52,082 nucleotides of DNA, taken from the NCBI GenBank assembly GCA_016871475.1, contig VHDG01000001.1:1-52082 (forward strand). Direction: 5' to 3'. The position numbers and the translations under genes are program-made. The DNA comes from Verrucomicrobiota bacterium. Lineage in GTDB: Bacteria > Verrucomicrobiota > Verrucomicrobiia > Limisphaerales > UBA11320. This document shows positions 584-29,535 of the stretch, piece after piece. The notes under the pieces are model-generated. The model worked only from the letters and a program-made list of their open reading frames with translations, was not told the DNA's origin and did not search any database. The first letter of the stretch is position 1, and the number at the start of each line of letters is the position of its first letter.

Positions 584-2071
584 TTACTCCGGCAGCGGCC
601 GGCCCTTGGTTTCGGGCGCGAACCGAACCGCCACGACCCCCACAAGGAACACGACGGCGAGCGTCATGGCTGCGGGACGAAGCGGCATGCCATGGCCCAA
701 TCCGGCATACAGCACCGCGAGCTTGCCCAGCGTGAGCGATCCAAAGGCGGTGAGATAGCGGGCCACGTTGTAGCAAATCCCCACCCCCGTGCTGCGAAGC
801 CGCGTCGGAAACAATTCGGGAAAATAGATGGCATAGCCGCCGTAGATCGACGCCACGCAGAAGCCGAGCAAAGGCAGCATCCAGTAAACATCGGAGCGTG
901 ACTTGAGCCACCCGAACGTGATCCAAGTCGCGCCGAGCGCCAGCAGAAAAGCCACAGCAAAGGCGCGCCGCCGTCCCACCCTTGAGGTAAACCAGGTGAA
1001 AGCATAAATGCCGAACATCCCGGCGATGTCCTGCAGCAACGTTCCTCGCCCCACGAGTTGATCGCTTTCGGCTTTCCAGGCTTTCACAATACCCGCTGTT
1101 GCCGCCGGGTCGGCCGCCACCAACGCCGCGAGTTCATTCACCGGCAGCGTGGCCACGCGGTCCCGCTCGGCTTCAGTCGTGAATTTGACGGTCTCAAGGA
1201 TGGTCTGCCGACGTTCTTCGACCAGTGAGCTGCGCACCAGTTCCGGCGTCCAATAGCCAATGCCCCAGAGGCCGGTCTGACCGGCCAGCGCCAGCAGAAG
1301 GCCGATGATGAGATGATAGCGGAGCGTGGCATTGCGAAAAATTTCCCTGAAATCACCGAGCTGCCGATGCAACTCGTCAGGTCCAGCGCCATCGGCCGGG
1401 CGGGTTTCATCGGCTCGCCGGCTCGCTTGGACCCAGCGGTCAGGCTCCTTGAGCCGAAAACGAATCACGATGACCAACAATGCGGGAAGCACGCCCAGCA
1501 GAAAAAGAACACGCCACCCAGCCCATCCGCCGACTTCCGATTCCGGCCCGAGATAAATGCTGATCCAGGAGGCGATCAAATGTCCCAACGCACCAAGGCC
1601 CTGCAAGAGACCGAGGCAATAGGGGCGAGCACGTTCCGGCACCACCTCTGCGACCAACGCGATGCCTGCGGCATATTCGCCTCCGATCCCCAAGCCGCAA
1701 AAAAAACGGTACGCAGCGAAATCCCACCATGACTGCGCGAAGCTGGACAGCCCCGTGAAGACCGCGTAAATGAGGATGGTGATCATCATCGTCTTGGTGC
1801 GCCCGAGGCGATCGCCCAGCAGACCGAAGAAGAGGCCTCCCGTGGCCCAGCCGAGAATGAAGATCATCGTCGCGTAACCGGCGTATTGCGTGATCGCGGA
1901 CTCGCTCAGGTGAGGCATGAGGTCCTGAAGCGCCGGCGTGCGGGCCAGGACAAAGAGCCGCTGATCCATGCCGTCGAACAACCAGCCCAGCGTGGCCACG
2001 GTGAGGACCCACCAATGGTAGCGGTTCAGCTCACGCCACCAGGGCCCCGCTGATTCGGAGGCCGCGCTCAT
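584..2071 (-). CDS. MFS transporter (12-TM major facilitator)
   Basis: 495 aa with alternating hydrophobic segments. MFS loop motif GLLGDRLGRTKTM after TM2, and FFCGLGIGGEYAAG...PERARP in the TM4-TM5 region. It is the last gene of the co-directional minus-strand block. Confidence 0.88.
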   Translation of the reverse strand: MSAASESAGPWWRELNRYHWWVLTVATLGWLFDGMDQRLFVLARTPALQDLMPHLSESAITQYAGYATMIFILGWATGGLFFGLLGDRLGRTKTMMITILIYAVFTGLSSFAQSWWDFAAYRFFCGLGIGGEYAAGIALVAEVVPERARPYCLGLLQGLGALGHLIASWISIYLGPESEVGGWAGWRVLFLLGVLPALLVIVIRFRLKEPDRWVQASRRADETRPADGAGPDELHRQLGDFREIFRNATLRYHLIIGLLLALAGQTGLWGIGYWTPELVRSSLVEERRQTILETVKFTTEAERDRVATLPVNELAALVAADPAATAGIVKAWKAESDQLVGRGTLLQDIAGMFGIYAFTWFTSRVGRRRAFAVAFLLALGATWITFGWLKSRSDVYWMLPLLGFCVASIYGGYAIYFPELFPTRLRSTGVGICYNVARYLTAFGSLTLGKLAVLYAGLGHGMPLRPAAMTLAVVFLVGVVAVRFAPETKGRPLPE

Positions 2072-2120: not shown

Positions 2121-3563
2121 TCACGCGCGAGTGAGACGTTCGAAGAGGTTGTTGTGGCCGCCCACGTCGGTGAGGCGTTGCTGGCGGCCCTCGAAGAGGT
2201 AGGTCAATCGTTCGTGATCGAGGCCCAGGAACGTCAGCAGGGTGGCGTGCAGATCGTGGACGTGAACTTTGTCTTCCACCGCGCGGAATCCGAACTCGTC
2301 CGTGGCGCCGATGGCCTTGCCGCCGCGAATGCCGCCGCCAGCCAGCCATGTGGTGAAGCCGTAGGGGTTATGGTCGCGTCCCAAACTGCCCTGCATGACG
2401 GGTGTACGGCCGAATTCGCCCGTCCAGACGACGAGCGTGTTTTCCAGCAGGCCGCGTTGTTTGAGGTCGGTGAGCAACGCTGCGATCGGCTGATCCACGC
2501 GTTCCGCATTGGACTCATGGTTCTTCGCGCATTCGCCGTGGCCGTCCCAATCGTTGTTGTAGAGCTGCACGTAGCGCACGCCGCGTTCGACCATGCGACG
2601 GGCGAGGAGGCACATGCGCCCGAACTTCGCGGTCGGCCCCTTGTCCACTCCATACAACTCGCGTGTCGCGGCAGGTTCCTTCGAGATATCGATCAAGTCC
2701 GGCGCGGCGGTTTGCATGCGGAACGCCAGTTCGTAGTTCGCGAGACGCGCTTCGAGACGCGTGTCGTCGGGTCGCTCGGTGTGATGACGCTGGTTCCAGC
2801 GATTCACGTAATCAAGCACGCGGCGTTGCTCCTCCTTCTCGAAGGGCGGGGTGAGGTTCTGGATCGGCGCACCTTCGGTGCGGATCACCGTGCCTTGGTA
2901 GGCCGCGGGCAGGAAGCCCGATCCGAAACTTACCGCTGCGCCGGCGCGGAATCCGCCGTCGGACATCACCATATAGGAGGGCAGATTGTCGCTCAGCGAG
3001 CCGAGTCCGTACATCACCCATGCGCCGGTGCTGGGATACCCCAGCTTCGCCGTGCCGCAATGCAACAGCCCGAGCGCCGGACCGTGGATGAAAGATTCGT
3101 GATAGCACGAGCGAATGACGGCCAAGTCGTCAGCGTGCCGGGCGACGTGCCGAAACAGATCCGACACCTCCAACCCGGATTGGCCGTATCGCTGAAACTT
3201 GAACGGCGAGCCCATCAGCCTGCCATCGGTGGCCTTCATGAATTGCAGCATGAGGCCGTCACTCTTGAAGCTGTCCGGCAGCGGCTTGCCGTCGTACTTC
3301 TGCAACTCAGGCTTGGGATCGAAGGTGTCCATGTGGCTCGGCCCGCCGGTCATGAACAGGAAAATCACGTGCTGTGCCTTGCTTGCAAAGTGGGGCAACC
3401 TCACGGACAACGGATTCCGCGAGAGCGCGCCGGTCGCGTGCAGATCCTCCCGCATCAACAACGAACCCAAAGCCACGGCGCCGAAGCCGTGTGCGGATTT
3501 CTGCAAAAATTCGCGCCGGTTCAGGGCAACTGCGTGGCGTCCACAAGTGTTGCTATTTTTCAT
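2121..3563 (-). CDS. DUF1501 family protein (sulfatase/alkaline-phosphatase superfamily), pair 1
   Basis: 480 aa. N-terminal twin-arginine-like NRREFLQKSAHGFGAVAL. Family-typical blocks FMTGGPSHMDTFDPKP, WDGHG, GEFGRTP and GRDHNP. Starts 6 bp after the stop of the DUF1553 gene. Confidence 0.92.
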   Translation of the reverse strand: MKNSNTCGRHAVALNRREFLQKSAHGFGAVALGSLLMREDLHATGALSRNPLSVRLPHFASKAQHVIFLFMTGGPSHMDTFDPKPELQKYDGKPLPDSFKSDGLMLQFMKATDGRLMGSPFKFQRYGQSGLEVSDLFRHVARHADDLAVIRSCYHESFIHGPALGLLHCGTAKLGYPSTGAWVMYGLGSLSDNLPSYMVMSDGGFRAGAAVSFGSGFLPAAYQGTVIRTEGAPIQNLTPPFEKEEQRRVLDYVNRWNQRHHTERPDDTRLEARLANYELAFRMQTAAPDLIDISKEPAATRELYGVDKGPTAKFGRMCLLARRMVERGVRYVQLYNNDWDGHGECAKNHESNAERVDQPIAALLTDLKQRGLLENTLVVWTGEFGRTPVMQGSLGRDHNPYGFTTWLAGGGIRGGKAIGATDEFGFRAVEDKVHVHDLHATLLTFLGLDHERLTYLFEGRQQRLTDVGGHNNLFERLTRA

Positions 3564-3569
3564 GGCGTG

Positions 3570-6500
3570 CTAGTCGATGTAACTGAACTCATTCAGATTC
3601 AAGAGCGACAGACAAAACTTCGTCAGCGCGGCGGCTTGCTCTTTGGGCAAGCGTTTCAACGCGTCGGGCATGGAGCCGGTTTCCTTGGTAACGTCGGCGG
3701 TCTTCGTGAAGGCATCGATCATTTCCAGGGATTCGCTTTTCTCGGTGGGGGTCGGAGCGCGCCCCAGCGCCCAGCGCCAGGCGCGGTCGATCCACGCCAC
3801 CGGGTCCAAGGCAATCGTTCGCTCGACGCGAAGCGCCTTGCCTATCACGCCACCGCCATGGGCGAGCGACTCGCAGTACTGCCAGCCCGCTGGCGTTGGA
3901 TTCGCAGCAAGAGAAAACGCCGCGGCCAAGTCGTTTGTCTGAGTGGCCGACGTAATGGTGAAATTCACTCCGACGAAGTCGCCTTGGAGGATTTCCAGGC
4001 GAAACGAGTCACCGGGGGCGCACGGGATCGCTTCCAACGCCTCCGCGCCCGCGCGCCCGCGCGCGAACCCGAACGGCCTGGACGAAGTTCCCGACGCGTC
4101 GTCGATGCCGGCTTCGGTGAGCAGATCACGGTCGTTCTTCCACAGCTTCCAACTTCCGCCACGGCCCAACTGGCGAATGTTCCACACGCCGCCCGTGATC
4201 TTCACGGGGCCGCCTGAATAGTCTGGTGGCGCCTTCCAGAGCACGCTCGACATGCCGTGCGTGATAACCGTCCCGATCGGATCGTCGAAGCTCGGCGTCG
4301 AGTGACCGTTGTCGACGCGCTTGGCCCAGCCGGCGTGGACGCCGGACGCTTTGCCTTCCCAGCCGGTCTGGCCGGGGCCGAAGTCCGGCTCGTTCCAGCC
4401 TTGACCCGGTTTGCCGACGAGCCGGGCGGCGAATTCGCGCGCCTGTTGGCCGGCGACTTTGTTGTTCATGAACCACAACGCTTGCGGCGCAACCGTCGTC
4501 ACGTCCCGGGCGGCGGCGCTCACAGAGTTGACCGGCAGATCGAAGACATCGAAGAGCGGGAATCGAAAGTTGCGGCGCGTCAAGATGTACAGACCGCGGC
4601 GCGTGTGATCTTTCGGATCGGCGGACACGATCCAGTTGCCTGACGGCATCTCGTCGCCCGTGAGCGGCGGCGCAACGGGCCGTCCGCCCAACGCAAGGTT
4701 CAGCGTGCCGGCCACGGCGTGCAGGTTGTCCCAGATCGTTTCGGCTTCGAGGCGCCGGCGATTCGCGCGCCAGAGCAGGCGGTTCTCGGGATCAGCGCGC
4801 AAATTCGCCTCATGCGCGAAGCGGCTGTCCATTTGATAGGCGCTCGACCGCAGGATCAGCCGATGCAACGTCTTCAGGCTCCAGCCTTGCGTCATGAACT
4901 CGACGGCCAGCCAATCGAGCAGTTCCGGGTGCGAAGGCAGCTCGCCCATCTTGCCAAAATCGTTCAGGGTCGCGACGATCCCGCGCTCGAAATGCCAGTG
5001 CCAGACGCGATTCACCATCACTCGGGCCGTGAGTGGATGATTCGTCTTCGTAAGCCACAGCGCGAGCTGCTTACGGCTGCCGAACGGGCCGGGTAACGCG
5101 CCCTCCCACCGACTGTTCTCTTTCAGCACTGCAGGTAAATCTGCGCCCACCGGATCACGCGCGCGCTTGATCTCGCCGCGATTCAAGATGTGAATGACCG
5201 GCACCAGCTCGGGTCGTTCGTGGCCCAGGACGCTGACGGTCGGGATTTCCATCAAGCCGTCGAACGGGCCGTCGTGCGCCGTGGACTCGGGCATGGATAG
5301 GACCGCGTTGGCGATGCCTTCGAGCAGACGCTGTTTCTTCTGCTTCTCTTCGGGTGTGAGCTCGCGGTCTCTCGTGTGCGCTTCAAAGAGGCGATACGCC
5401 TTGCGCGCTTCACTGGCGGCGATGACGCGTGGGTAATGCTGCTTGAAGTCCGCAATGCCCATCGCCGGAATGATCGGCGCCTCGACTTCGCGGCTGCCGG
5501 CGAAGACCGCTTGCAGAGCGAAGTAATCACGCTGCGTGAAGGGATCGAACTTGTGATCGTGACAGCGCGCGCAGCCGAAGGTTAGCCCCATGAAGGCGCT
5601 GGCGGTCGTATCGACCCAGTCCGTGAGCCTTTCGTAAGCAAGCTTGGGCGCGTCCATGTTCGACTCATGCACTTGCGGACCGAGCGTGTAAAAGCCCGTG
5701 GCGACGCGGGCCTCGAAGTGCCGCTTCTTGGCCTCGGGCAGTTGATACGAACCGTCGAGATCGAGGTTGTCCGGCCACAGCTCGTCGCCGGCAATCTGTT
5801 CCTGGACGAACCGATCATACGGCTTGTCGTCGTTGAACGAGTTCACGACGTAATCGCGATAGCGCCACGCGTTGCGGTAATAGATATCGGTCTCGTATCC
5901 GCCGCTGTCGGCGTAGCGCGCGACATCGAGCCAGTGCCGGCCCCAACGTTCGCCGTAATGTTTGGAGGCGAGCAGCGAATCGATCAGCTTCGGCCATGCT
6001 TCCGGCGACGCATCGTTGACAAAGGCCTCGACCTGCTCCGGTGTCGGCGGCAGACCAAGCAAATCAAAGTACGCGCGGCGAACCAGCGTGCGTCGATCCG
6101 CGCGCGGGGCGTGCGACAACCCTTTTTCCTCCAGTTTCGCGAGAACAAAGGCATCGATCGGCGTCGTGACCCACTTTGAAGCTTTGACGGCGGGAACCGC
6201 CGGGCGTCGCGGCGGGACCAACGACCAAAACCGTTTCGCTTCCTCCGTGATGGGCGAACTAGTTAAAACGGCGGCGTCCCCGCGTCGCGGATCCGGGGCT
6301 CCCATCTTCACCCAGGCCTCGAAATCGGCGATCTGCTGTTCGGTGAGCTTTCCGCCGTTTTTCCTGGGCGGCATTCGCAGGTCTTCGTCCGTGTAGCGAA
6401 TGGCTTTGATGAGCAGGCTTTGCTCGGGTGAACCGGGCACAAGCGCCGTGCCCGAATCGCCGCCTTTCATCCAGCCGTCGCGCGAGTCGAGCCGCAGGGC

Positions 6501-6674
6501 GGCCTTGAGGCTCTTGGCTTCGGCGCTGTGACATTCGTAACAGCGCTCGATGAGGACCGGACGGATCCGATTCTCGAAGAAGTCCAAATTCTCGCGCGTG
6601 GGTTCGGCCGCGCCAGCGCAAGCCAGGGAAGCAATCCCCACCCAAAGCAGTACGAGGTTTTCGCGTCTGTTCAT
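3570..6674 (-). CDS. PSCyt1 (c-type haem CxxCH) + DUF1549 (PSCyt2) + DUF1553 (PSD1) protein carrying an inserted A-module, pair 1
   Basis: 1034 aa. Signal peptide [27 protein letters not shown] at nt 6528-6542. DUF1549 block [24 protein letters not shown] and DUF1553 block [14 protein letters not shown] ~195-aa insert lies between FAARLVGK and [12 protein letters not shown]; the two paralogs in this window have only 8-9 aa at that position. Confidence 0.92.
3831..4400 (-). repeat. A-module, circularly permuted copy inserted in the DUF1553 domain
   Basis: It starts [70 protein letters not shown] and ends with [27 protein letters not shown]. In every other copy that last segment is N-terminal. 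Confidence 0.8.
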
Positions 6675-6758
6675 GCTTCAATTCGATCGGTCGTAACTTT
6701 CATGAAAAGACCGTCCGAATGCGAGTTTTATTCGACCGTTTTGCCGTTCGTATGCCAT

Positions 6759-9700
6759 CTACCGGCGAATCAAGCGGTAAAACTTCGCCGCCATTGTTGG
6801 AGGAACCACGTGTGGATTGTTCGCGTTGGCCGAGTCGCTCCACGCTCCGGTCACAGCGTCCGCTTCTTGCAGCGTCCCGGCACCGGTCCACGAGATTTCG
6901 ACATTGGTTCCGGCGACTCGGATGGCCACGGTCAGCGGCGGATCAGGCGTGTAGGTCGCGATGCTGAATTGCACCGACACGAAGTCGCCTTGGAGAATCT
7001 CGAGCCGGAACGAATCACCCGCCGAGTAAGGGAGGTCCAGCAACGCCGCCGCGCCGCCGCTGCCGGAGTTCAAGCCCTTGGGCGACGTCGAGGTGCCGGA
7101 GCTGTCATTGATTGTGCCTTCGGACAACAGATTCGTTTCGTTCCCCCACAGCCGCCATAGTCCGCTGCGCCCGAATTGGCGGATGTTCCAGAATCCGCCG
7201 GCCAGACACGCGACGCCGCCGGGATCGTTCGGAGGCGCCGTCCACAACACACTGGTCGGCCCGTGCGTCAACACGCTGCCGATCGGGTCATCGTAGTTGG
7301 GAGTGGCGTTGCCGTTGTCGATGCGCTTGGCCCAACCCGCATGAGCGCCCGCGCGCGCGCCGACCCAGCCGGTCTGGCCCGCCCCGAAGTCGGGCTGGTT
7401 CCAATTCTCAACGGCCGCGCCCACAGGCCCGCCGCCGTTGCCGAGCGATTCGCTGTATTGCCAGCCGGTCGCCGTTGGATTCGCGTCGAGAGCAAAGTCA
7501 GCGACCAAGTCATGAACCTTTCTCGTTGTGAGCGCGAAGTCCACGGCGACAAAATCGCCGGCCAGAATCTCGAGGCGGAACGTATCGCCCGCCCCGTAGG
7601 CAATGCCGCGCAGCGCACTTTCACCGCCGCTGCCCGTCGCAAAACTCTTGGGCGCAGCGGAAGTGCCTTGCGAATCGTCGATTATGCCTTCGCTGATCAA
7701 GATCGTGTCGTTGTGCCACAACCGCCACGTGCCGGAGCGACCGAAGTGGCGGATATTCCACAAACCGCCGCTGATGTCGGCCACCCCGCCGCGATCATTG
7801 GCCGGGGCCTTCCAGAGAACGCTGGTGGCTCCGTGCGTCAGGATCGTGCCGGGCGGATCGTCGTAGCTCGGCGTTGCGTTGCCGTTGTCCACTCGCCGGG
7901 CCCAACCCGCATGAGCGCCCGCGCGCGCGCCGACCCAGCCGGGCTGGTTCGCGCCGAAGTCCGGCTGATTCCAGTTTTGAACCACAGGACCGACCGGCCC
8001 GCCGCCATTGCCGAGCGACTCGCTGTATTGCCAGCCATCGCTCGTCGGATTCGCGTCGAGTTTGAAGTCGGCCGCGAGGCTGTGCCGCGTGCCTTTGATG
8101 GCCGGCGGCGGCGCCTTCACGGTGAGCGTGGCCTCGTCGCTCAGCACGACGCCGACGGCATTGCTGACCACGGCGCGGTACTGGCCCGCTTGCGCGAAGG
8201 AGACACCCGTGAGCGTCAGGGTGGAACTCGTCTGGCCCGGCAAATCCGCGCCTTTAAATTGCCATTGAAAGCTGATCGGGGACGTGCCGAGGGCTCGGAT
8301 GCTGAACGTCGCGTCGCCGCCGGCGATCACCGTTTGATCGTCGGGATGGCGCGAAACGATCGGATCAGCCGGCACGGGATACGTGCTGATCCGCAGTCTC
8401 ACGCCCACGAAATCTTCTTCCAGCACTTCCAGCCGAAACGTATCGCCGGCTCGGTAACGAATGCCCCGCAACCCTCCCGGGCCACTGTCGCCTGCCGCCA
8501 GATTCAACGGATTGCCGGACGCGCCGGAATCGTCGTTGATCGCGCCGCTGGTGATCAGGATCGTGTCGTTCTTCCACAGCCGCCACGTGCCGCTGCGATT
8601 CAAGCGGCGCAAATTCCATAACCCGCCACTGAGGTCGGCCAGGCCGCCGGGGTCGTTGCCGGGCGCGCGCCACAGCAAGCTGGTTCTGCCGTGGGTCATG
8701 ATCGTGCCTTCCGGATCGTCCAGCGGAGGCGTGGGATTGCCGTTGTCAACGCGCCGCGCCCAACCGGCGTGCGCGCCCGGCGGAGACGCACCTTGCCAGC
8801 CGGGTTGACCGCCGCCGAAGTCCGGCTGATTCCAGTTTGGCGTGACGGGACCCACGATGCCGCCGCCGTCCGCCAGCGCGCGGCTGTACTGCCAGCCAGT
8901 CGAAGTGGGATTCGCCTCGAGGCTGAAATCGGCGCTGGCATCGTGCAGTTGCCGGGTGATGATAGTCATGTTGAGGGCGACGAAATCGTTCACGCCGACG
9001 CTTGCGACTTCGAAGCGAAAGGAATCTCCCGCCTGGTAAGGAATGTTGCGCAACGCATTCGGGCCGCTCGAGCCGTTCGCAAAATTCAGGGGCGAGCGTG
9101 AATCGCCGGAATTGTCATCGACCACTCCGTCGGTCAGGAGCTCCGTGTCATTTTTTAAGATGCGCCAGTTACTCGGCCGGTTGAGATGGCGGATGTTCCA
9201 AAGACTGCCGCGGATGTCCGCGACGCCGCCGCGGTCATCCGGGGGCGCCGTCCACATCACGCTGGTCGGCCCGTGCGTAATGATCGACCCGACCGGGTCG
9301 TCATACGTGGGCGTCGGACTGCCGTTATCGATGCGCTTGGCCCAACCCGCGTGGGCGCCGGCGCGCACGCCGACCCAACCCGGTTGGCTGGGGCCGAAGT
9401 CCGGTTGATTCCAATTCGGAACCACATTTCCGACCGGCCCGCCGCCGTTGGCGATCGATTCACTGTATTGCCAGCCGGTCGCCGTCGGATTCGCGTCGAG
9501 GCTGAAGTCGGCTGACAAATCATGACGCGCGCCGCTGACTGAGTCGGGCCGGGGCGTGACTTGAAGGTTCGCCGGCAGGCTCGTGCGCGAGCCGTTTCCG
9601 TTGCTCACCTGCACCGTGTAGGTGCCCGAGCGCTCGAACGCCACGTCGTTCAGCGCGAGCGACGCCCCGGTTTCACCGGCGATCTCGACGCCTTCGTAAA

Positions 9701-11390
9701 ACCACTGGTAGCTGAACGGCGCGGCGCCCACGGCGGCGACGGTGAACGTCACGTCGTCGCCTTCGTTGACCTTTTGGCTGAACGGATGCGTGGCGATCGC
9801 GGGATCGGGGCCTGTCGTCGAAGTAGTGATCGTAAACTGCACGCCCTGCAAATCGCCGTACGGCCCCATCAAACTTCCCCCGGGGCCGGACAATGGCAGA
9901 ATCTCCAACCGAAACGAATCTCCCGGTGAATAAGGAACTCCCGCTAATTCCATCGCCGTGGGCGCTCGGTCAAAACTGTTCGGCGTGTCGGACGAACCGC
10001 GGCTCACCACTTGTTCAGCCAGCAGGAACATGTCGTTTTTCCAAATGCGGTACTTCTGTCCGCGAGCGTTGCGTTCGATCGACCAGATTCCTCCGCTGAT
10101 CGTCGCGAACCGGTCCGTCTCACCGGCTGCGGCGGTCCACTTGACGCTGGAAGTTCCGTGCGTCATCACGGCGCCGAAAGGCGCGTCGAGGTTCGGCAAG
10201 TCCTTCGCGTTGTCGATGCGTTTGGCCCAGCCGATGAACGGCGTCGCCGGAATGCCCAGCCAGCCGGGTTGATTCGCGCCGAAAACGCTTTCGACCCAGT
10301 TAAACGAGACCGGTCCCACCACCCCGCCGCCCGCGTCGAGAGCTTGCGAGTATTGCCAGCCGCGCGAGGTGGGATTGGCCTGGAGCGTGAAGTCGTTGGT
10401 CAAGTCATGCACGCTCGGCGTCACCGGCCCCGGCGCATCGATCACCAACACGCCCGCCCGACTCGTCCGGCTCCCACCCGGACTCGTGACGACAACACGG
10501 TAGCTGCCTCCGTCGGCTGGACTGACCGACGCAATGGAGTGCGACGGGCCCGTCGCCCCCGGGACATCCACGCCATTCTGTTGCCATTGGTAGGTGAGCG
10601 GCGCCGACCCGGACGCCGTGGCCGAGAAAGTGACCGCGCTGCCCGCGACCACAAGCTGGCTTTGCGGATGGGCTGAGATAAACGGATCCGTGGTCGCCGT
10701 GGTCGTGATCGTGAAACGAACCGCAACGAAATCGTTCTGTAGAATTTCGAGCCGAAAGAAATCGCCCGGGTGATACGGAATGTCCCGCAAATCGGCGCTG
10801 CCACCGCTGCCGGACTCCAGGCTCAACGGCTGATCAGAAGTGCCGGTGAGATCGTCGATCGTGCCTTGTGACAGCACCGAGTCGTTCTTTAAAAGTCGCC
10901 ACGTGCCGCTGCGATTGAAGTGGCGAATATTCCAAAGCCCGCCGCTGATCGTTGCGAACCGATCGGTGTCGCCGGGCGGCGATTTCCACAGAACGCTGGT
11001 GTTGCCGTGCGTCAGGATCGTCCCGACGGGGTCGTCGTAGGTGGGCGTGTCATTGCCGTTGTCGATGCGCAAGGCCCAGCCCGCGTGCGCCCCGGAGCGC
11101 ATCCCGAGCCAACCTGGCTGCCCCGGCCCGAAATCGGGCGCGTTCCAATTGTCCCCGCGCGCGCCGACTGGTCCGCCGCCATTGGCGACCGACTCGCTGT
11201 ACTGCCAGCCGCCGGACGTCGGGTTGGCGTCGAGACTGAAATCGGCGGCCACGTCATGCACCGCCCCTGGGAGGTGCAGCGGTGAGAAAATGTTCGCCAA
11301 TAGTCCGGCTAGGACGGCCGCCATTGCTCTCGGGATTATTGCTTTCGATTGCGTCTTCATAATTAATATGTGGTTTTCTGAGTTATTCAC
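6759..11390 (-). CDS. Secreted repeat protein: 6 A-modules + 3 Ig-like domains + C-terminal FYRL domain
   Basis: 1543 aa. Hydrophobic N-terminus; an alternative start MKTQSK lies at 11360. Architecture is A-Ig-A-Ig-A-A-Ig-A-A-Cterm. The Ig-like domains carry the PLxYQW..G.Y.V.VSN pattern. It ends ..AAKFYRLIRR. Confidence 0.9.
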   Translation of the reverse strand: MNNSENHILIMKTQSKAIIPRAMAAVLAGLLANIFSPLHLPGAVHDVAADFSLDANPTSGGWQYSESVANGGGPVGARGDNWNAPDFGPGQPGWLGMRSGAHAGWALRIDNGNDTPTYDDPVGTILTHGNTSVLWKSPPGDTDRFATISGGLWNIRHFNRSGTWRLLKNDSVLSQGTIDDLTGTSDQPLSLESGSGGSADLRDIPYHPGDFFRLEILQNDFVAVRFTITTTATTDPFISAHPQSQLVVAGSAVTFSATASGSAPLTYQWQQNGVDVPGATGPSHSIASVSPADGGSYRVVVTSPGGSRTSRAGVLVIDAPGPVTPSVHDLTNDFTLQANPTSRGWQYSQALDAGGGVVGPVSFNWVESVFGANQPGWLGIPATPFIGWAKRIDNAKDLPNLDAPFGAVMTHGTSSVKWTAAAGETDRFATISGGIWSIERNARGQKYRIWKNDMFLLAEQVVSRGSSDTPNSFDRAPTAMELAGVPYSPGDSFRLEILPLSGPGGSLMGPYGDLQGVQFTITTSTTGPDPAIATHPFSQKVNEGDDVTFTVAAVGAAPFSYQWFYEGVEIAGETGASLALNDVAFERSGTYTVQVSNGNGSRTSLPANLQVTPRPDSVSGARHDLSADFSLDANPTATGWQYSESIANGGGPVGNVVPNWNQPDFGPSQPGWVGVRAGAHAGWAKRIDNGSPTPTYDDPVGSIITHGPTSVMWTAPPDDRGGVADIRGSLWNIRHLNRPSNWRILKNDTELLTDGVVDDNSGDSRSPLNFANGSSGPNALRNIPYQAGDSFRFEVASVGVNDFVALNMTIITRQLHDASADFSLEANPTSTGWQYSRALADGGGIVGPVTPNWNQPDFGGGQPGWQGASPPGAHAGWARRVDNGNPTPPLDDPEGTIMTHGRTSLLWRAPGNDPGGLADLSGGLWNLRRLNRSGTWRLWKNDTILITSGAINDDSGASGNPLNLAAGDSGPGGLRGIRYRAGDTFRLEVLEEDFVGVRLRISTYPVPADPIVSRHPDDQTVIAGGDATFSIRALGTSPISFQWQFKGADLPGQTSSTLTLTGVSFAQAGQYRAVVSNAVGVVLSDEATLTVKAPPPAIKGTRHSLAADFKLDANPTSDGWQYSESLGNGGGPVGPVVQNWNQPDFGANQPGWVGARAGAHAGWARRVDNGNATPSYDDPPGTILTHGATSVLWKAPANDRGGVADISGGLWNIRHFGRSGTWRLWHNDTILISEGIIDDSQGTSAAPKSFATGSGGESALRGIAYGAGDTFRLEILAGDFVAVDFALTTRKVHDLVADFALDANPTATGWQYSESLGNGGGPVGAAVENWNQPDFGAGQTGWVGARAGAHAGWAKRIDNGNATPNYDDPIGSVLTHGPTSVLWTAPPNDPGGVACLAGGFWNIRQFGRSGLWRLWGNETNLLSEGTINDSSGTSTSPKGLNSGSGGAAALLDLPYSAGDSFRLEILQGDFVSVQFSIATYTPDPPLTVAIRVAGTNVEISWTGAGTLQEADAVTGAWSDSANANNPHVVPPTMAAKFYRLIRR
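6954..7520 (-). repeat. A-module copy M6 (aa 1291-1479), directly abutting M5
   Basis: [100 protein letters not shown]. Confidence 0.85.
7524..8090 (-). repeat. A-module copy M5 (aa 1101-1289)
   Basis: DFKLDANPTSDGWQYSES..NWNQPDFGANQPGW..HAGWARRVDNGNATPSYDDPPG..THG..GGLWNIRHFGRSGTWRLWHND..GDTFRLEILAGDFVAVDFALTT. Confidence 0.85.
8382..8951 (-). repeat. A-module copy M4 (aa 814-1003), directly abutting M3
   Basis: DFSLEANPTSTGWQYSRA..NWNQPDFGGGQPGW..HAGWARRVDNGNPTP..THG..GGLWNLRRLNRSGTWRLWKND..GDTFRLEVLEEDFVGVRLRIST. Confidence 0.85.
8955..9527 (-). repeat. A-module copy M3 (aa 622-812)
   Basis: DFSLDANPTATGWQYSES..NWNQPDFGPSQPGW..HAGWAKRIDNGSPTPTYDDPVG..THG..GSLWNIRHLNRPSNWRILKND..GDSFRFEV. 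Confidence 0.85.
9822..10412 (-). repeat. A-module copy M2 (aa 327-523), the most divergent copy in this protein
   Basis: [80 protein letters not shown], plus an extra ~10-aa loop. Confidence 0.8.
10701..11261 (-). repeat. A-module copy M1 (aa 44-230)
   Basis: DFSLDANPTSGGWQYSES..NWNAPDFGPGQPGW..HAGWALRIDNGNDTPTYDDPVG..THG..GGLWNIRHFNRSGTWRLLKND..GDFFRLEILQNDFVAVRFTITT. Confidence 0.85.
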
Positions 11391-11473
11391 TGTTCAGTTT
11401 CGGTCGCCGTCGGGTGGGTCTCACCAGCGATGGCAACAAATCTTTTTTTCCCATACGGCGCTTCAGCTGCTTC

Positions 11474-14400
11474 TTAACGCTCTCTGAGCCGGAAGAAGCG
11501 AGTGGGACCGCTCAGGCTCTGTCCAACGTGGATCTCATTGCCCACTTGCGTTTGGGGTCCGCTCGCTCCGATCCAAGGGCCCTGGATGGCCGTGGCCGCT
11601 TCGAGAATGTGATTCGTGAACGGGGCGGCCCAACTCAGTTGGAGCGATAGCCCCTGCGCCCGCGCGATCAGCCTCGGACGCGGAACAACGGTGAACGTCG
11701 CCTCGGCAAGATCAGTCCAGTTTCCGTTCGCGAGCGTCTGGCCCACGGGAAGGATGGCGGCGGCCCTCAGTATTCCGGCCTGCTGAATGGAAATCGGTTC
11801 GGTGTAAAGTTGTCGACTCAGCGAAAGTCGCGGGTCAGAGCCGTCCAACGTGACGTAAGCGAGCCAGCCGGGTTGCGTGGTGAGGCTCACCGTGGTCCCC
11901 GGCTGCACTTCGCCGTTCGCCAGCGAGAGCGCGGGCGTCTTGTCCGGAGACGGCAGGCCCGTCGAAGCGAGCGCGAGGAAGTTCGAGAGAGAGCGGCGTT
12001 GGCTCGTCAACACGTTAGTGGCTTCGTTAATGCTGGTGCGGATCGTACTCCAACGAGCCAGGTCCGCCGTGCGGTCTGGCGTCATGAGCGTGAACAGTTC
12101 CCGGATGCGCGGAATGATGACCTCGAGCTTCATGACGTCGCGAACCATCTTGCGCAGGGTGAGCAGATAGATGCGGCGCAAGGTGGGATTCGTCGAGACC
12201 CGTTGATACAGCTTGCCGCGTTGCCACGCCGGATTGTCGCCGCCGCCGCCGTCGCCGTAGAGGGCGCGGATTTGGCCCACGCGCCCGAAGGTGAACCCGG
12301 AATCGAAGTCGTAGCCGAGCATCTTCCACTTGCCGCCCGGCTCGCCGGGAAGAAACAGGTAGTAGTTGTGGCCGGTGAAGTCATCGATGTTCATGCACAC
12401 GTTGAGCGCCCAGCGCTTGAACCATTGGTCCAGGTCCACGTGCGCATCGAGCCACGGCAGCAACTGGGCATCGGACATGTCGTTCAGCGCATCGACCAGT
12501 TCGCGCAGCGAGTCCGGCGGCTCGAGAGGACGCACCTTCTTGTTATACGCGCCCCAATAGTCGTAATCCGTGACGATCTGATTGTGGAACAGGTCGGAGT
12601 TCTTCCACTGCGCGGGCGTTTCGACCGTTCGGCCTTTGTACACCTCGCCGCCTTCATGGTGGCCGTGCTTGCCCAGCCAGCGTCCGGTCGGGCTTTCGAA
12701 GCCGATGTACACGCCCCAGAACGAGCCGTTGATGTGCAAACGCACCAGTTCGTGTTGCAAGTTATCAATGCCCGCTGAGTCAAACAGCTCGAAGGCGATC
12801 TTCTGCTCCAGCGGAATCGAGTACATCGTGTCGTAGGTGCGGTTGGTCTTGTAGAGATGGTCCTTGTTGAATTGGAATTTCCACGGACGCTTCGGATCGT
12901 CGCGCGAACGGCGCCCGCGATACCGCGCGCCCACGTGCGGATAGGCGATGTGGTCGATCACCAGCGAGCAATCGACGTAGTCGTCCGAGCGCGGATTGGC
13001 ATTGAGCCTGTTCAGATTCGCCGTCGGGATGAACAGGTGAAACAGCGTGCTGCGCGTATTGATCTCGCCGTTATAGTGGAAATAAGCCTGCGTGGGCGAT
13101 GGGTCGTCTGCGTAAGGAAACTGTGTCGTCACGCCGCGCGTGTCGGTGGCCACGACCTGGTAATGCACGAGTGTTTGGGACGCCCTGGCAGGAACCCAAA
13201 CGCCGAAGACACCATCGTTCGCCACACCGTCGCCGTGCAGGCCATCATCGAACATCTCGAGCCACGTCTCGTTCGTCGCGGCGTTCATCATGGTCTTAAG
13301 CTGGACCGACTCAAGCGGCGCTTCGCCTTGGACGCGGGCGGTGACCAACACGTCGTTCGTCGAGGCGGGCTTATCGGGAAAGTGCGTTAAGCCATCGACC
13401 AACGGTGGCAATGGCTCGGCTCCCACCGAATTGAGCCGGCCCGGGGTGCCGCAGCCGATGAACCCGGCCACCGGCGGCGCGATGATGGGCGGCGCCACCG
13501 ATTCGCCAAACGCCAGCGAAATATCGTAGCCGACGTAATCGTCGGAGCGATTCGGCGCCAGCGGCGTTGCGCCGAATTTGAGGACATCACCGGCCACGAC
13601 GTTCACGATCAACGCGCTCGGCCCCTTGCTTCCCGTTTCGAATGACAGCGGTGAGCGCGAGTTGATGGTGAGGTTGGTGTTGAATAAATCGCCGGCGGTG
13701 ATTTCGGTGTTGTTGAGTTTGATGTACCAGTGCTGACTGCGTCCGATGCGGCGCAGGAGCCAAACACCGCCCGAGATGGTCACGCGTTGGCTGGAGGATG
13801 CGGTCCACCAAACTTCGGACGGACCGTACGACATGACCGAGCCTGTCGGGAAATCATACTCCGGACGTGGGGCGCCGGGCGCTTTCGACGAGCCGGTGCT
13901 TTTGCACCAGCCCGGAGTGCCGGTCGTGCCGCCAGCGGTCCACGCCGGCTGATTCGTGCCGAGATCGGCCGTGCGCCAGCGGGCAACGCGCGCGGTGATG
14001 ACCGTGCCGGTCCGATGCCGGTAACTCCATCCGTAGCTGGGGTTCAGCCAGTCGCTCCAGTCTTTCGCCAAGTTGTGAATTCCGCCGGAGGCCGCTATGA
14101 GCGGCGAGAACCCCGCTCCGGCAAATCCAATTGTAACCGCGTCGGCTCCCTTCTGAAAACTCGCGCGGCACGTGATCGTGTAACTCTGGCCGATCGTGAT
14201 ACCGGGGACGTTCGCCACACCGACGTAGTTGGACTCGCCATCGCCCGCACCTTGAGCAATCACCAGAAAACTCCCCCTGCCATCGAACGCTGCGTCGTCC
14301 GTTCGGCGTGACGTCGAATGGTTCCCGACCTTGGTCCAGCCGGAGTCGTCCGGCTCGAAGGAACCATTCGCCAGCAGGTTGGCGCCGCCGACTGCCGGAC

Positions 14401-15643
14401 GAACTTCCACTTGATCCACCAGCCATTCGCCTGCGCCGTTCAGCGCGACGAAGAGCTTGTCCGACATCGCGATGCCCGTCGCCGTGATCGTTTGCCACGC
14501 CACATGGGCTTGGGCCAATCTGCCGCGGCTGGCGCGCCAATTCGCCGCCGTGCTGTTATCCCTGTGAGGATTGATGCATTCGAGCGAGTAGCCGAATTCG
14601 TCCGGTCCAACCGGCCAGGGATGCCGGTCGTTGTAGCGCACCGTGTCCGCCACCCAGCCGAGCGCGTCGCGGAGCGTGAGTCGTTCGCCGCCGTCATCGA
14701 GTACGCCGACGAACGGCCCGACGACATTGGTGATGCCGAAGCGCAACGTTACCGCTTGCGGCACGGCCGCCACGACGAGATGCGCGCCCGCGGCCACCAC
14801 CGTGCCGGGCGGAAACGTGAACGCGATACCTTCAGTGAAAGCCCAGCCCGCGAGGTCCACCGGGTGCGTGCCGCGATTGAACAGCTCGACGTATTCGCCG
14901 AGTTCGTCGTCGCCCGCTTCGTAATATTGACCGGCATTCACGGCGTCGAACTTCTCGCGCAGCTCTTCGCGCTGAGGGAGGTACATGATTTCGTTGATGA
15001 CGATGGCGCTCCCACCGGGAACGCCGGGCTTGTTGGACACCCCGGGCGAATAGGGTTGCCCCACGCTCCAATTGGCCGGGGTATTGTTGTCAACGTCCGG
15101 CGAGATCAGTTCGAGGGACGCACCACCGCCATCGGCTTCACTGGGCCATGGAGCCGAGTCGTCGTACGAAACGAAATCGATCATTCGGCGAGGGCTGCCA
15201 TTGTCCTTGAGCCTGATCGTGTCGTCGCCATTGTCGAGGCGTCCGACGTAATTCCCCAAGATGTTCGTGACGCCGTAGAAAGCACCTGCTGCCGTGGCGT
15301 CGCGCGCAATGACCAGATACGCGCCGCCGAGCAAGATCGTTCCATCGGGAAACGCAAAATCCACACCGCCATCGACGATCCAGCCGGTCAAATCCACCGG
15401 CGTGCCGCCGCGGTTGTAGAGTTCAATGAACTCATCGCCGGTGTTGTTCGGGTCTTGGTGATACAGAATCTCGTTGATTACCACGTCGGTCGGTCCTGCG
15501 ATGAGCCGACTCCCTCCAAACGACATCAACATCAGGCAAACGACGGCAACGCCCTGAATGATAGAGCGAAGCCGAGCACATCGAGCGGTCGAGCGGACGC
15601 CCGCGCAACAATCGAGTGACAGGGGCAACAACTTCACGTTCAT
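11474..15643 (-). CDS. Secreted lamin-tail-domain (LTD x2) / CotH kinase-like protein containing a divergent A-module
   Basis: 1389 aa. LTD motifs VVINEILYHQDP..EFIELYNRG and IVINEIMYLP..YVELFNRG. CBM-like segment NLLANGSFEPDDSGW. CotH-type region YRGRRSRDDPKRPWKFQF..VRLHINGSFWGVYIGFE. CHB_HEX_C-like segment YVTLDGSDP..YTEPISI. It ends ..TRFFRLRER. Confidence 0.9.
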   Translation of the reverse strand: MNVKLLPLSLDCCAGVRSTARCARLRSIIQGVAVVCLMLMSFGGSRLIAGPTDVVINEILYHQDPNNTGDEFIELYNRGGTPVDLTGWIVDGGVDFAFPDGTILLGGAYLVIARDATAAGAFYGVTNILGNYVGRLDNGDDTIRLKDNGSPRRMIDFVSYDDSAPWPSEADGGGASLELISPDVDNNTPANWSVGQPYSPGVSNKPGVPGGSAIVINEIMYLPQREELREKFDAVNAGQYYEAGDDELGEYVELFNRGTHPVDLAGWAFTEGIAFTFPPGTVVAAGAHLVVAAVPQAVTLRFGITNVVGPFVGVLDDGGERLTLRDALGWVADTVRYNDRHPWPVGPDEFGYSLECINPHRDNSTAANWRASRGRLAQAHVAWQTITATGIAMSDKLFVALNGAGEWLVDQVEVRPAVGGANLLANGSFEPDDSGWTKVGNHSTSRRTDDAAFDGRGSFLVIAQGAGDGESNYVGVANVPGITIGQSYTITCRASFQKGADAVTIGFAGAGFSPLIAASGGIHNLAKDWSDWLNPSYGWSYRHRTGTVITARVARWRTADLGTNQPAWTAGGTTGTPGWCKSTGSSKAPGAPRPEYDFPTGSVMSYGPSEVWWTASSSQRVTISGGVWLLRRIGRSQHWYIKLNNTEITAGDLFNTNLTINSRSPLSFETGSKGPSALIVNVVAGDVLKFGATPLAPNRSDDYVGYDISLAFGESVAPPIIAPPVAGFIGCGTPGRLNSVGAEPLPPLVDGLTHFPDKPASTNDVLVTARVQGEAPLESVQLKTMMNAATNETWLEMFDDGLHGDGVANDGVFGVWVPARASQTLVHYQVVATDTRGVTTQFPYADDPSPTQAYFHYNGEINTRSTLFHLFIPTANLNRLNANPRSDDYVDCSLVIDHIAYPHVGARYRGRRSRDDPKRPWKFQFNKDHLYKTNRTYDTMYSIPLEQKIAFELFDSAGIDNLQHELVRLHINGSFWGVYIGFESPTGRWLGKHGHHEGGEVYKGRTVETPAQWKNSDLFHNQIVTDYDYWGAYNKKVRPLEPPDSLRELVDALNDMSDAQLLPWLDAHVDLDQWFKRWALNVCMNIDDFTGHNYYLFLPGEPGGKWKMLGYDFDSGFTFGRVGQIRALYGDGGGGDNPAWQRGKLYQRVSTNPTLRRIYLLTLRKMVRDVMKLEVIIPRIRELFTLMTPDRTADLARWSTIRTSINEATNVLTSQRRSLSNFLALASTGLPSPDKTPALSLANGEVQPGTTVSLTTQPGWLAYVTLDGSDPRLSLSRQLYTEPISIQQAGILRAAAILPVGQTLANGNWTDLAEATFTVVPRPRLIARAQGLSLQLSWAAPFTNHILEAATAIQGPWIGASGPQTQVGNEIHVGQSLSGPTRFFRLRER
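13508..14083 (-). repeat. Divergent A-module-like segment (aa 521-712 of the LTD-CotH protein)
   Basis: It keeps the order and spacing of the module landmarks: DWSDWLNPSYGWSY.., LGTNQPAW, TPGW, FPTGSVMSYGPSEVWWTA, ISGGVWLLRRIGRSQHWYIKLNN, and GDVLKF near the end. Confidence 0.5.
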
Positions 15644-15946
15644 GAATCCGACCCAGTTGATTTCTGGTCAGCCATCACTGGCGCGCCAGAAAAGCAGTGA
15701 TTCCAAGGGGCCCGACATAAACTTCCAACTTTGTCTCCACCGAAAGCCCGCTTTTCAGAACGATGTCGTCAGGCCACGCCGAGCCGCGGAACCCCAACAC
15801 CCACACTTCCAACCGCCTAACCAAAACGAGAACAGACGAAACCGCTGAAGTGCGGCACCTTTCAGGCAAAGTTTTGGGTTATATAAAAAAAATAACACTT
15901 TCCAGCCTTTTGATCAAGCAAAACTTATTGCGAAAAACACTTCGAA

Positions 15947-17440
15947 TCAGTTGATCAAGTCAGTGGTCACCGTCGCGCTCGTGATGTCCGCATCGGTCAA
16001 CGTTTCATCGCGACCAAGGTGTTGAAAGGCCAGTCGGCGATGATCCAAGCCCATCTGCCAGAGGACCGTGGCGTGCACATCACTCACTCCCATCTTCTGA
16101 CTTGTCACTTGGTAGCCCAGCTCGTCCGTGTGGCCATAGACGAAACCGCGCTTGAATCCGCCTCCGGCCAGCCAGACAGCGCCTGCATGCCGGTTATGAT
16201 CACGTCCGCCCTGTCCTTGCGTGATGGGCAACCGCCCGAACTCTCCGCCCCACAGCACCACGGTCGAATCAAGCAGCCCCCGGGCTCGCAAGTCTCGGAT
16301 CAGCGCGGCGCTCGGCGCATCCGTCGCGGCACAGGCCTTGGCGAGACCGCCTTTCACGTCTCCGTGATGATCCCAATTCGCGTCTCGGACCGGGGCAAAC
16401 ACCAACACGAAGCGCACGCCGGCTTCGACCAGTCGCCGCGCCATGAGTAGCCGGCGCGCATAGCCCGCTCGAGCCGGATTGGAACTGTCCAAACCATAGA
16501 GCTGCCGGGTGGCGGCAGACTCGCGGGAAAGGTCCGCGACGTCCACGGCTTCGAGTTGCATGCGGGCGGCTAGCTCATAGTTGCGAATCCGCGCGTCGAG
16601 TTCGGCCTCGTTGGGATTCCGGTTCTGATGCCGTCGGTTAAGCTGGGCCAGGAACTCGAGGTTTCGGCGTTGCACGGCGGCGGGCACGGGCACGGCGGGG
16701 GAAAGGTTTTGCACGGGTGTTCCCTTGGGGTTGAACTCCGTGCCACCAAAGATCGGCGACAACCAGCCCGGTTGATACATCAGTTTGCCGCTGGTGGGAA
16801 ATCCCTCGGGATCCCGCAGGACGACGAACGCGGGCAGATTCTGATTCTCGCTGCCCAGGCCGTAGGCGATCCATGCGCCCAGCGTCGGACGTCCGGGCAG
16901 AATCTTGCCACTGGCGAATTGGATGATCGCTTCGGTGTGATTATTGTTGTCGCTCACCATGGAGCGCACCAGGCAGATTTCGTCCGCCACGCCACCGATC
17001 TCGGGCAGCAGCTCGGACAATTCCATGCCGCAATTGCCGTAGCGCCGAAACGGATAGACCGAGCCGAGCAGCTTGTTGGTGTTGCCTTGCTGAAACGTTT
17101 CAAAGTTGCCGCCATGCGCTTCGCCATTGCGACGCTCCAGCTCCGGCTTGCGATCGAACAGGTCCATGTTGCTCGGCCCGCCGGTCTGCATCAGCATGAT
17201 CATTGCCCGAGCTGGTGCGCGGGACTGGGGCGCTCGCGGACGCAGGTCGAGATGCGGCCGGCTGCTCGCCCGTCCAGTGCTCTCACCCGCCAGATACGAC
17301 AGGGCGAAGGCCCCCAGCCCAAGGCCACAACGATGCAGCAGATCGCGACGGGACAACGGGCCCAACTCGGCCCGTGCAAGGAGTGAGGAGAGATCGCTCG
17401 TGGCTGACGGCGCCGATCGGGGTGAGAGAGGAGAGATCAT
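15947..17440 (-). CDS. DUF1501 family protein, pair 2
   Basis: 497 aa. Twin-arginine-like LSRRDLLHRCGLGLGAFAL. Blocks MQTGGPSNMDLFDRKP, WDHHG, GEFGRLP and GRDHNRH. Starts 21 bp after the upstream DUF1553 gene. Confidence 0.92.
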   Translation of the reverse strand: MISPLSPRSAPSATSDLSSLLARAELGPLSRRDLLHRCGLGLGAFALSYLAGESTGRASSRPHLDLRPRAPQSRAPARAMIMLMQTGGPSNMDLFDRKPELERRNGEAHGGNFETFQQGNTNKLLGSVYPFRRYGNCGMELSELLPEIGGVADEICLVRSMVSDNNNHTEAIIQFASGKILPGRPTLGAWIAYGLGSENQNLPAFVVLRDPEGFPTSGKLMYQPGWLSPIFGGTEFNPKGTPVQNLSPAVPVPAAVQRRNLEFLAQLNRRHQNRNPNEAELDARIRNYELAARMQLEAVDVADLSRESAATRQLYGLDSSNPARAGYARRLLMARRLVEAGVRFVLVFAPVRDANWDHHGDVKGGLAKACAATDAPSAALIRDLRARGLLDSTVVLWGGEFGRLPITQGQGGRDHNRHAGAVWLAGGGFKRGFVYGHTDELGYQVTSQKMGVSDVHATVLWQMGLDHRRLAFQHLGRDETLTDADITSATVTTDLIN

Positions 17441-17461
17441 GGCGAATACACTTTTGCGCGC

Positions 17462-29475: not shown

Positions 29476-29535
29476 GAATATTCTTAGCCCAAAGTGCATC
29501 TGACCATTCCGGATGCTTTTGATTGCCAAAAATAC

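Follow-up and report, generated by a model that had tools for sequence, protein, structure and literature searches.

How does a domain that normally occurs in tandem copies come to lie, with its first segment placed after its last, inside a loop of an unrelated domain? This question is raised by p1, a gene on a 52,082-nucleotide stretch of DNA from a Verrucomicrobiota bacterium (assembly GCA_016871475.1, contig VHDG01000001.1, positions 1 to 52,082; hereafter the window). The product of p1 has an N-terminal signal peptide followed by PSCyt1, PSCyt2 (DUF1549) and PSD1 (DUF1553, PF07587) domains, and we found that one loop of the PSD1 domain holds a copy of a module that occurs six times in the neighbouring gene p2. 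An earlier note on this DNA had described the insert as such a module with its ~35 N-terminal residues at its C-terminal end and had placed it at 3831-4400; these coordinates were essentially right, the module-homologous part being nucleotides 3834-4403. The parts of p1 are given below, with residue numbers in parentheses.

3570-6674, minus strand: p1, the host gene, 1034 residues, exported (open reading frame (ORF) list, translation and Pfam matches)
4419-5075, minus strand: PSD1 part before the insert (534-752), Pfam profile positions 2-213 of 244
4404-4418, minus strand: entry linker VGKPG (753-757), poorly conserved in orthologues
3945-4403, minus strand: inserted module body (758-910), model nodes 37-189
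3936-3944, minus strand: junction of three residues (911-913), where the former C-terminal strand meets the former N-terminus
3834-3935, minus strand: relocated N-terminal segment, or N-segment (914-947), model nodes 2-35
3795-3833, minus strand: exit linker (948-960), orthologue mean identity 0.30, structure confidence (pLDDT, see below) below 50
3573-3794, minus strand: PSD1 tail after the insert (961-1034), ending in NEFSYID

The canonical form of the module was taken from p2, in which the six copies are arranged as follows.

6759-11390, minus strand: p2, 1543 residues, secreted, with six canonical modules and three immunoglobulin-like (Ig) domains
10692-11261, minus strand: module M1
9795-10412, minus strand: module M2
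8949-9527, minus strand: module M3
8373-8948, minus strand: module M4
7518-8087, minus strand: module M5
6945-7517, minus strand: module M6

Using a profile hidden Markov model (HMM) built from M1-M6, we observed that insert residues 3-155 matched nodes 37-189 (220.5 bits, 1e-69), while insert residues 159-192 matched nodes 2-35 (38.3 bits, 8e-14). No node was used twice and almost none was skipped, so the insert amounts to the sequence of a single module, read cyclically. With the N-segment moved back to the front, the two matches became a single match over nodes 2-189 with 264.9 bits, which falls inside the range of the canonical copies scored by leave-one-out (203-325 bits). The insert is exactly one complete module, cyclically permuted, and the profile alignment places the permutation point where the earlier note had put it. 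The permuted and canonical forms share 54-62% sequence identity. In its N-segment the insert retains the family-invariant residues N, P, G, W and Y (N-P..G-W-x-Y), and its body retains the conserved W, G, R, P and GD. At one site (residues 917-919, nucleotides 3918-3926) the window copy reads AAAF, where all other insert-bearing orthologues and all canonical modules read A-[DE]-F, so an acidic residue otherwise invariant in the family is lost.

The contexts of the copies in p2 agree with the claim that the segment is N-terminal in the repeat proteins and that the last copy ends without it. M1 follows the signal peptide, and M2, M3 and M5 each follow an Ig domain, while M4 directly follows M3 and M6 directly follows M5, giving two tandem junctions (M3|M4 and M5|M6). 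M6 is trailed by a different C-terminal domain, with no N-segment after it.

Pfam matches in p1 included PSCyt1 (residues 45-104, 66.8 bits), whose haem-binding CxxCH motif reads CYECH in the translation, and PSCyt2 (residues 172-395, 283.3 bits). With the insert present, PSD1 matched at 272.8 bits (gathering cut-off 28.5) over residues 534-752, covering profile positions 2-213 of 244. Deleting residues 756-960 in silico gave 286.4 bits and a match contiguous over profile positions 2-242 of 244; the insert is nested, as had been claimed, in a PSD1 loop, the one that links the last helices of the domain. The motif FAARLVGK ends at residue 755 and PSD1 resumes at residue 961, so the insert measures 205 residues (756-960, nucleotides 3795-4409), not the ~195 given earlier. 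The spacing between the Arg of AAR and the Leu of ALGR is 218 residues in p1 versus 17-31 (mode 20) in 120 insert-less relatives, and the net gain of p1 over a normal PSD1 domain is ~198 residues. The two paralogues in the window carry FAARVRGEADNDPARIAVAFRLALGR and LAARVLEDGGVSTSDRIRYAIRRCLGR at this point, just as the note quoted them, but the spacing under strict anchors is 6-7 residues and not 8-9. No other insert was observed at this loop among the 120 best PSD1 relatives (17-31 residues each), a survey that says little on other types of insert because the list of relatives favours contiguous, insert-less matches.

Structures were predicted with AlphaFold2 for the canonical M6 (66-sequence alignment; predicted local distance difference test score (pLDDT) 97, predicted template modelling score (pTM) 0.92) and for the insert (11-sequence alignment; pLDDT 77, pTM 0.76). 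In the insert model the first ~30 residues were low, at ~36-50, and the body from residue 31 onward was at 77-96 (mostly 86-96). The low-confidence residues (1-16, 23-27 and 186-210) are limited to the exit linker and the two sides of the cut loop, and most of the relocated N-segment was modelled at 84-91. Every strand and helix of the insert body mapped to the M6 model with an offset of 31 residues, and a four-residue turn was placed before the relocated segment. The corresponding elements, in residue numbers of the two models, are listed here.

Insert strand 31-34: M6 strand 61-64
Insert strand 70-80: M6 strand 101-111
Insert strand 88-94: M6 strand 119-125
Insert strand 98-105: M6 strand 129-136
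Insert strand 115-117: M6 strand 146-148
Insert helix 125-128: M6 helix 156-159
Insert strand 131-133: M6 strand 162-164
Insert strand 138-156: M6 strand 169-189
Insert strand 179-183 (WQYCE, relocated): M6 strand 19-23 (WQYSE)
Insert helix 185-187 (relocated): M6 helix 25-27

This cyclically shifted order of secondary-structure elements in the predicted models supports a true permuted fold. The three-residue junction and the confident model also suggest that the termini of the module would be adjacent in three dimensions.

Order-dependent Foldseek searches of the PDB with both models returned CBM35, CBM6, CBM36 and PA14 sugar-binding domains as top matches, all of them weak (E 1.4e-3 to 3e-2; TM-score normalised to the query, TMq, 0.26-0.39). 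Pfam gave no PA14, CBM_6 or similar match in p1, p2 or the two further module-bearing genes of the window, p3 and p4, while NCBIfam had no match to the module and a PDB sequence search with the module returned nothing at E < 0.05. In p2, Pfam otherwise matched only Ig domains, and a DUF1775 identity for the p2 module was rejected: the sub-threshold 29.6 bits were summed over the repeats, with no single significant stretch. The module belongs to an undescribed family of ~190 residues, predicted to form a beta-sandwich weakly like CBM6/35/36 and PA14. Short members of the family consist of a signal peptide, the module and a PEP-CTERM signal.

Searched exhaustively with the module profile, 1.84 billion cluster representatives yielded 588 module-bearing proteins (E <= 1e-3). 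Among the best 150 of the 588, P0010, P0013, P0017 and P0025 were PSD1 proteins with the body followed by the N-segment at the same loop, and word-indexed searches added P0001, P0153 and P0157 with the same permuted layout in PSD1. A word-indexed search with the single insert sequence returned two fragments; the exhaustive profile search and the alignment query found more. Scanning one genome per GTDB species yielded 16 loci from the Planctomycetaceae, Pirellulaceae and Schlesneria (Planctomycetota) and from the Limisphaerales and Chthoniobacteraceae (Verrucomicrobiota), and metagenome fragments also carry the permuted insert. The loci were 41-56% identical to the window over the query region (45-56% for the 15 full-length matches). 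Each of the 16 has a PSCyt/PSD1 gene with nodes ~35-190, then 2-~36, then the PSD1 tail, except that in L018 the contig edge truncates the module body and that the short tail scored too low to pass the threshold in a few cases. In 15 of these 16 loci the insert-bearing PSD1 gene is followed by a DUF1501 gene, the other (L014) ending at a contig edge. The earlier note had proposed searching databases for other DUF1553 proteins inserted at this loop, and such proteins were found in the 16 loci and in several database entries.

Conservation was measured on 16 aligned full-length sequences (the window and 15 loci). Mean pairwise identity was 0.70 for the N-segment, 0.62 for the body, 0.59-0.78 for the host domains and 0.30-0.44 for the junction and exit linkers. 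The ratio of nonsynonymous to synonymous substitution rates (dN/dS; Nei-Gojobori, moderately diverged orthologue pairs) was 0.06-0.25 for the N-segment, 0.07-0.16 for the body, 0.05-0.16 for the host and 0.12-1.2 for the linkers. Because it is conserved like the body and has a low dN/dS, the relocated N-segment is maintained by selection as part of the domain rather than being a relic.

Some of the related entries showed peculiarities of their own. The first residues of L001, P0001 and P0002 (MLFRSRAD..., MCSSDL...) resemble translated sequencing adapter at contig ends, and L001 has an in-frame stop just upstream. L014 (CAMAVD010000143.1) is titled as an Akkermansia muciniphila metagenome-assembled genome and has a window-like locus that is otherwise of Limisphaerales-type genomes, so that the label looks doubtful.

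A second set of permuted modules was observed in five GH116 glycosidases (P0048, P0076, P0101, P0151, P0159), where the module is nested in the N-terminal domain. The GH116N Pfam match resumes at profile position 77 and extends over 1-306 of 312 once the module is removed. With a profile built from the nearest canonical relatives of the GH116 inserts, the body matched nodes 38-187 (1e-45 to 1e-51), followed by the N-segment at nodes 2-24 (1e-6 to 1e-8 in four of the five; P0159, apparently frameshifted, was weakly matched). The cut lies in the same module loop as in the PSD1 insert. In a neighbour-joining tree of 186 module bodies (200 bootstraps), the PSD1 and GH116 inserts formed a clade in 0/200 replicates, whereas the PSD1 inserts grouped with canonical A-type modules in 200/200 and the GH116 inserts grouped with canonical modules of their own type, such as P0014, in 180/200. 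The N-segments differ in signature as well, being ANPT..GWQYSE in PSD1 hosts and DWSD..NPNG.W.Y in GH116 hosts, and the canonical copies of P0014 (782-959 and 963-1143) are directly tandem. Two independent permutations at one loop would be the parsimonious reading of these sequences. As a separate observation, a GH116 gene with a nested module in L002 (10001-12931, on a 1.16-Mb contig) is split into ORFs of 302 and 468 residues, probably through frameshift errors of long-read assembly rather than as a pseudogene.

The DNA of the p1 insert is colinear with the M5 body plus the M6 N-segment (blastn, 561 nt, 66% identity, E 3e-33), and its junction resembles the direct tandem junctions M3|M4 and M5|M6. 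The GC content at third codon positions (GC3) is 0.79 for the insert and 0.77 for the host. The event is old, because GC3 equals that of the host and DNA identity is low; for the same reasons (identity of only 66-72%, GC3 as in the host) we rejected a recent duplication or gene conversion from p2. The most likely origin is a tandem array, by swaposin-like permutation by duplication. A stretch one unit long would have been lifted off-register from an array such as M3|M4 or M5|M6 in p2, and an ancestor would have captured it in its PSD1 gene, the product since being retained as a folded domain. The cut in the chain would thereby fall at module positions ~35/36, in the long loop that follows the second strand, with three residues joining the old C-terminus to the old N-terminus. 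The new chain ends would lie in one formerly continuous loop, so that the host loop could bridge them without disturbing either fold. The earlier note had set a genuine permutation against a shifted repeat phase. The permutation stands, with the N-segment conserved and under purifying selection, but the origin would be just such an off-register stretch of a tandem array; given the colinearity with the M5|M6 junction, permutation and shifted phase are product and origin and not alternatives.

The wider locus, which bears on the function of the insert, is made up of the following genes and modules; every gene in the left third of the window is on the minus strand.

584-2071, minus strand: major facilitator superfamily (MFS) transporter
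2121-3563, minus strand: DUF1501 partner gene, 480 residues, immediately downstream of p1 (Pfam DUF1501, 503 bits)
11474-15643, minus strand: p3, two lamin-tail (LTD) domains, then a divergent module, then CotH
13514-14080, minus strand: divergent canonical module in p3 (87 bits, nodes 1-186)
15947-17440 and 17462-20800, minus strand: second DUF1501/PSD1 pair
29494-33149, plus strand: third PSD1/DUF1501 pair, followed by p4
33280-37269, plus strand: p4, with two A-modules, two B-type modules as distant relatives, Ig domains and, at its end, a GH115_C-like domain
34324-34890, plus strand: canonical module A1 of p4 (279 bits)
35728-36291, plus strand: canonical module A2 of p4 (299.5 bits)

The DUF1501 partner of p1 carries a twin-arginine (Tat) signal, with the N-terminus NRREFLQKS. 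Literature searches for DUF1553, DUF1501 and DUF1549 returned no functional study. Some PSCyt genes have been observed with carbohydrate-binding modules (CBMs), CBM_6 and PA14 among them, and on that basis PSCyt genes were suggested to act in carbohydrate metabolism (He et al. 2017, PMC5615132). The module has a CBM-like predicted fold, occurs inside GH116 enzymes and is displayed on PEP-CTERM and Ig-spaced surface proteins, and its PSD1 host shows a conserved pairing with a Tat-exported DUF1501 protein; on these grounds the module is most likely an accessory ligand-binding domain, probably for glycan, of an exported redox/hydrolase-like pair. It would give an exported haem-c PSCyt/PSD1 subfamily a substrate-recognition surface, and this subfamily would work with its Tat-exported DUF1501 partner of the alkaline-phosphatase/sulfatase superfamily. 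On PEP-CTERM and Ig-spaced surface proteins the same module would be the unit put on display, while in GH116 glycosidases it would act as an accessory domain nested in the enzyme.

The coupling of the module to the DUF1501/DUF1553 pair by Rosetta-stone logic, as drawn in the earlier note, was borne out in one respect: DUF1501 is paired with the insert-bearing gene wherever the contig continues. In sequence fetched up to 10 kb on each side of the loci, however, free-module neighbours occur only in the window and L014. L014 alone among the 16 loci shows window-like synteny (a module-CotH protein, a protein with six modules and three Ig domains, and the insert-bearing PSD1), and the Planctomycete loci have no module-bearing neighbour within that distance. 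Because it is also nested in GH116, the module looks like a general accessory and not a dedicated partner of PSD1/DUF1501.

Taken together, we consider it likely that the insert is a permuted complete module, derived from a tandem array, kept folded in PSD1 and serving an accessory ligand-binding role. An assembly or gene-calling artefact that joined a module gene to a PSD1 gene is a general possibility, and some related database entries are adapter-contaminated fragments, but we regard it as vanishingly improbable and effectively refuted: the frame is open over 1034 codons without interruption, the arrangement recurs in 16 independent assemblies and several metagenomes, and insert and host share the same GC3. 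The insert might instead be a vestigial off-register fragment, in which the trailing N-segment is a leftover not packed on the body and there is no true permuted fold. The colinearity with a tandem junction, the pLDDT of 56 over insert residues 181-190 and the loss of a conserved Asp in the window copy all fit such a fragment. It is nonetheless highly improbable, as the N-segment is present in every orthologue across two phyla at the identity and dN/dS given above while true linkers drift, it keeps N-P..G-W-x-Y, its strands are modelled at pLDDT 84-91, and it has been retained independently in GH116 hosts. We also find it improbable, if somewhat less so, that the module was permuted once and the cassette later moved between PSD1 and GH116 hosts. 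The cut is in the same loop in both, and bacteria of the Planctomycetes-Verrucomicrobia-Chlamydiae (PVC) group exchange genes; against this, the body tree never joins the permuted groups (0/200) and nests each with canonical modules of its own type, the relocated N-segments bear the signatures of their own clades, and the canonical modules closest to the GH116 inserts (P0014) are directly tandem copies.

As to function, the insert could be a protein-protein docking module that tethers PSD1/DUF1501 to p2, p3 and p4 through module-module or module-Ig contacts. In both the window and L014 the insert-bearing gene adjoins the six-module protein and the module-CotH protein, and Ig-spaced arrays are typical of adhesins. 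We judge docking unlikely, although it is the least easily dismissed of these alternatives, because among the loci whose upstream sequence is long enough to tell, L014 alone has a module-bearing neighbour in the fetched sequence, Planctomycete loci show the PSD1/DUF1501 pair alone, the module also occurs nested in GH116 glycosidases and by itself on PEP-CTERM proteins, and the fold matches are to sugar-binding domains. Several points weigh against our own preferred explanation of a permuted, folded accessory module. The insert model, built on only 11 aligned sequences, has a pLDDT of 56 over residues 181-190 and below 50 over 1-16 and 186-210, and the equivalence of the relocated segment in three dimensions would follow from the order of secondary-structure elements and model confidence. 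The window copy has lost the conserved Asp (D7) of the N-segment (AAAF, not AADF). The CBM-like assignment, and hence glycan binding, is tentative and draws on weak Foldseek matches, and the literature searched holds no known function for PSCyt, PSD1 or DUF1501. In a neighbour-joining tree built on the PSD1 domain, the insert-bearing proteins do not come together as a clade (2/100), and insert-less PSD1 proteins (P0227, P0168 and others) are 60-68% identical to p1, as close as the insert-bearing ones. A single insertion event is not demonstrated, because the insert-bearing set is not a clade and insert-less relatives are equally close; one insertion, several gains, or gain and loss may each account for these sequences. 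Nor is a need of permutation for insertion demonstrated. Three residues suffice to close the old termini, which would thus lie close in space, so an unpermuted module should also be insertable, and we have downgraded the idea that insertion required permutation. The permutation is instead a signature of the route of capture and of a loop that tolerates new ends.

A broader proposal can be offered tentatively, and with more doubt than confidence: the loop after strand 2 may be a preferred permutation site, used at least twice independently for cassettes nested in PSD1 and in the GH116 N-terminal domain, with the nested module acting as the substrate-recognition element of one PSCyt/PSD1-DUF1501 subfamily.

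We made several further observations on the window. The B-modules of p4 (GAWSYGYD type; residues ~70-255 and ~625-815) precede the A-modules and are distantly related to the module family (hhalign against the 66-sequence alignment, 95%, E 2e-8, over the C-terminal two thirds). The C-termini of p2, p3 and p4 (6759-6944, 11474-11650 and 37090-37269) share with P0002 and P0164 a ~55-residue segment (...W.G...L.......W......FFRLR(E)) that has no Pfam match and could be a lineage-typical sorting or anchoring domain. Three PSCyt/PSD1-DUF1501 pairs lie within 37 kb (2121-20800 and 29494-37269), each beside a giant secreted protein with lamin-tail, CotH, Ig and module domains, and this clustering could be functionally meaningful. 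An ORF of 2162 residues with four LTD domains and CotH (24025-30513, minus strand) overlaps the third PSCyt2/PSD1 ORF (29494-31677, plus strand) by ~1 kb; the true starts must lie further in, because the PSCyt2 match begins only at residue 67 of the plus-strand ORF. A protein at 38120-39304 (minus strand) combines an FG-GAP repeat with Peptidase_S74, the intramolecular chaperone of endosialidase-type tail fibres, a combination unusual for a chromosomal context.

The closest precedent is swaposin, the plant-specific insert of plant aspartic proteinases, reportedly described by Ponting and Russell in 1995. Its accepted origin is permutation by duplication (PMC3320104). Swaposin and the p1 insert are alike in that a normally tandem domain (prosaposin in the former) is permuted and nested in an unrelated host domain, with high sequence similarity between permuted and canonical forms, which argues for divergence rather than convergence; like the swaposin precursor, the module occurs in direct tandem copies, with a permuted form colinear with the tandem junction. 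They differ in that swaposin has a four-helix saposin fold and is found in eukaryotes in a single host family, whereas the insert is a ~190-residue predicted beta-sandwich of PVC bacteria, in a host domain without known function, with a cut that recurs independently in GH116.

Other systems share single features with the insert. PA14 and CBM6/35/36 are accessory sugar-binding modules of glycosidases and adhesins, and PA14, like the insert, is nested in host enzymes (GH3 beta-glucosidases; Foldseek match 5wug). We know of no nested PA14 or CBM insert that is permuted, and unlike PA14 and CBM6 the module lacks Pfam membership, its structural similarity to them being weak (TMq as above). The PSCyt/PSD proteins described previously resemble p1 in having PSCyt and PSD domains beside a conserved partner gene of unknown function and in carrying accessory CBM-type domains (Laminin_G_3, CBM_6, PA14 and NPCBM; PMC5615132); theirs are annotated Pfam families, while the module of p1 is unannotated, lies inside PSD1 itself and is permuted. 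PDZ domains are often inserted in other domains and have several circularly permuted forms, according to the portion of the CIRPIN survey drawn on here (PMC13552848). The PDZ fold differs from that of the module, and that portion of the survey (PMC13552848) states neither a link between permuted form and insertion nor a recurrent cut site.

The evolutionary mechanism is already known; what is new is this well-documented instance of it, in a bacterial host system without known function and in an undescribed domain family, which neither Pfam nor NCBIfam contains and which numbers 588 cluster representatives (E <= 1e-3). Natural permutations in which the tandem precursor, the permuted product and the nesting host all lie in one locus are, to our knowledge, rare. 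The insert of p1 provides a bacterial beta-sandwich counterpart to swaposin, conserved in two phyla and with the same cut made again in a second host, and a clean natural example of repeated modules becoming insertable cassettes. It is informative about the origin of domain insertions and about the loops in which new termini are tolerated, a matter also relevant to protein engineering. PVC bacteria carry dozens of PSCyt/PSD1-DUF1501 pairs per genome, and the insert marks a distinct PSCyt/PSD1 subfamily whose embedded module, probably an accessory binding domain, is a starting point for identifying a ligand. If the nested module does act as the substrate-recognition element of this subfamily, its ligand would be the first experimental handle on the PSCyt/PSD1-DUF1501 pairs of Planctomycetota and Verrucomicrobiota.

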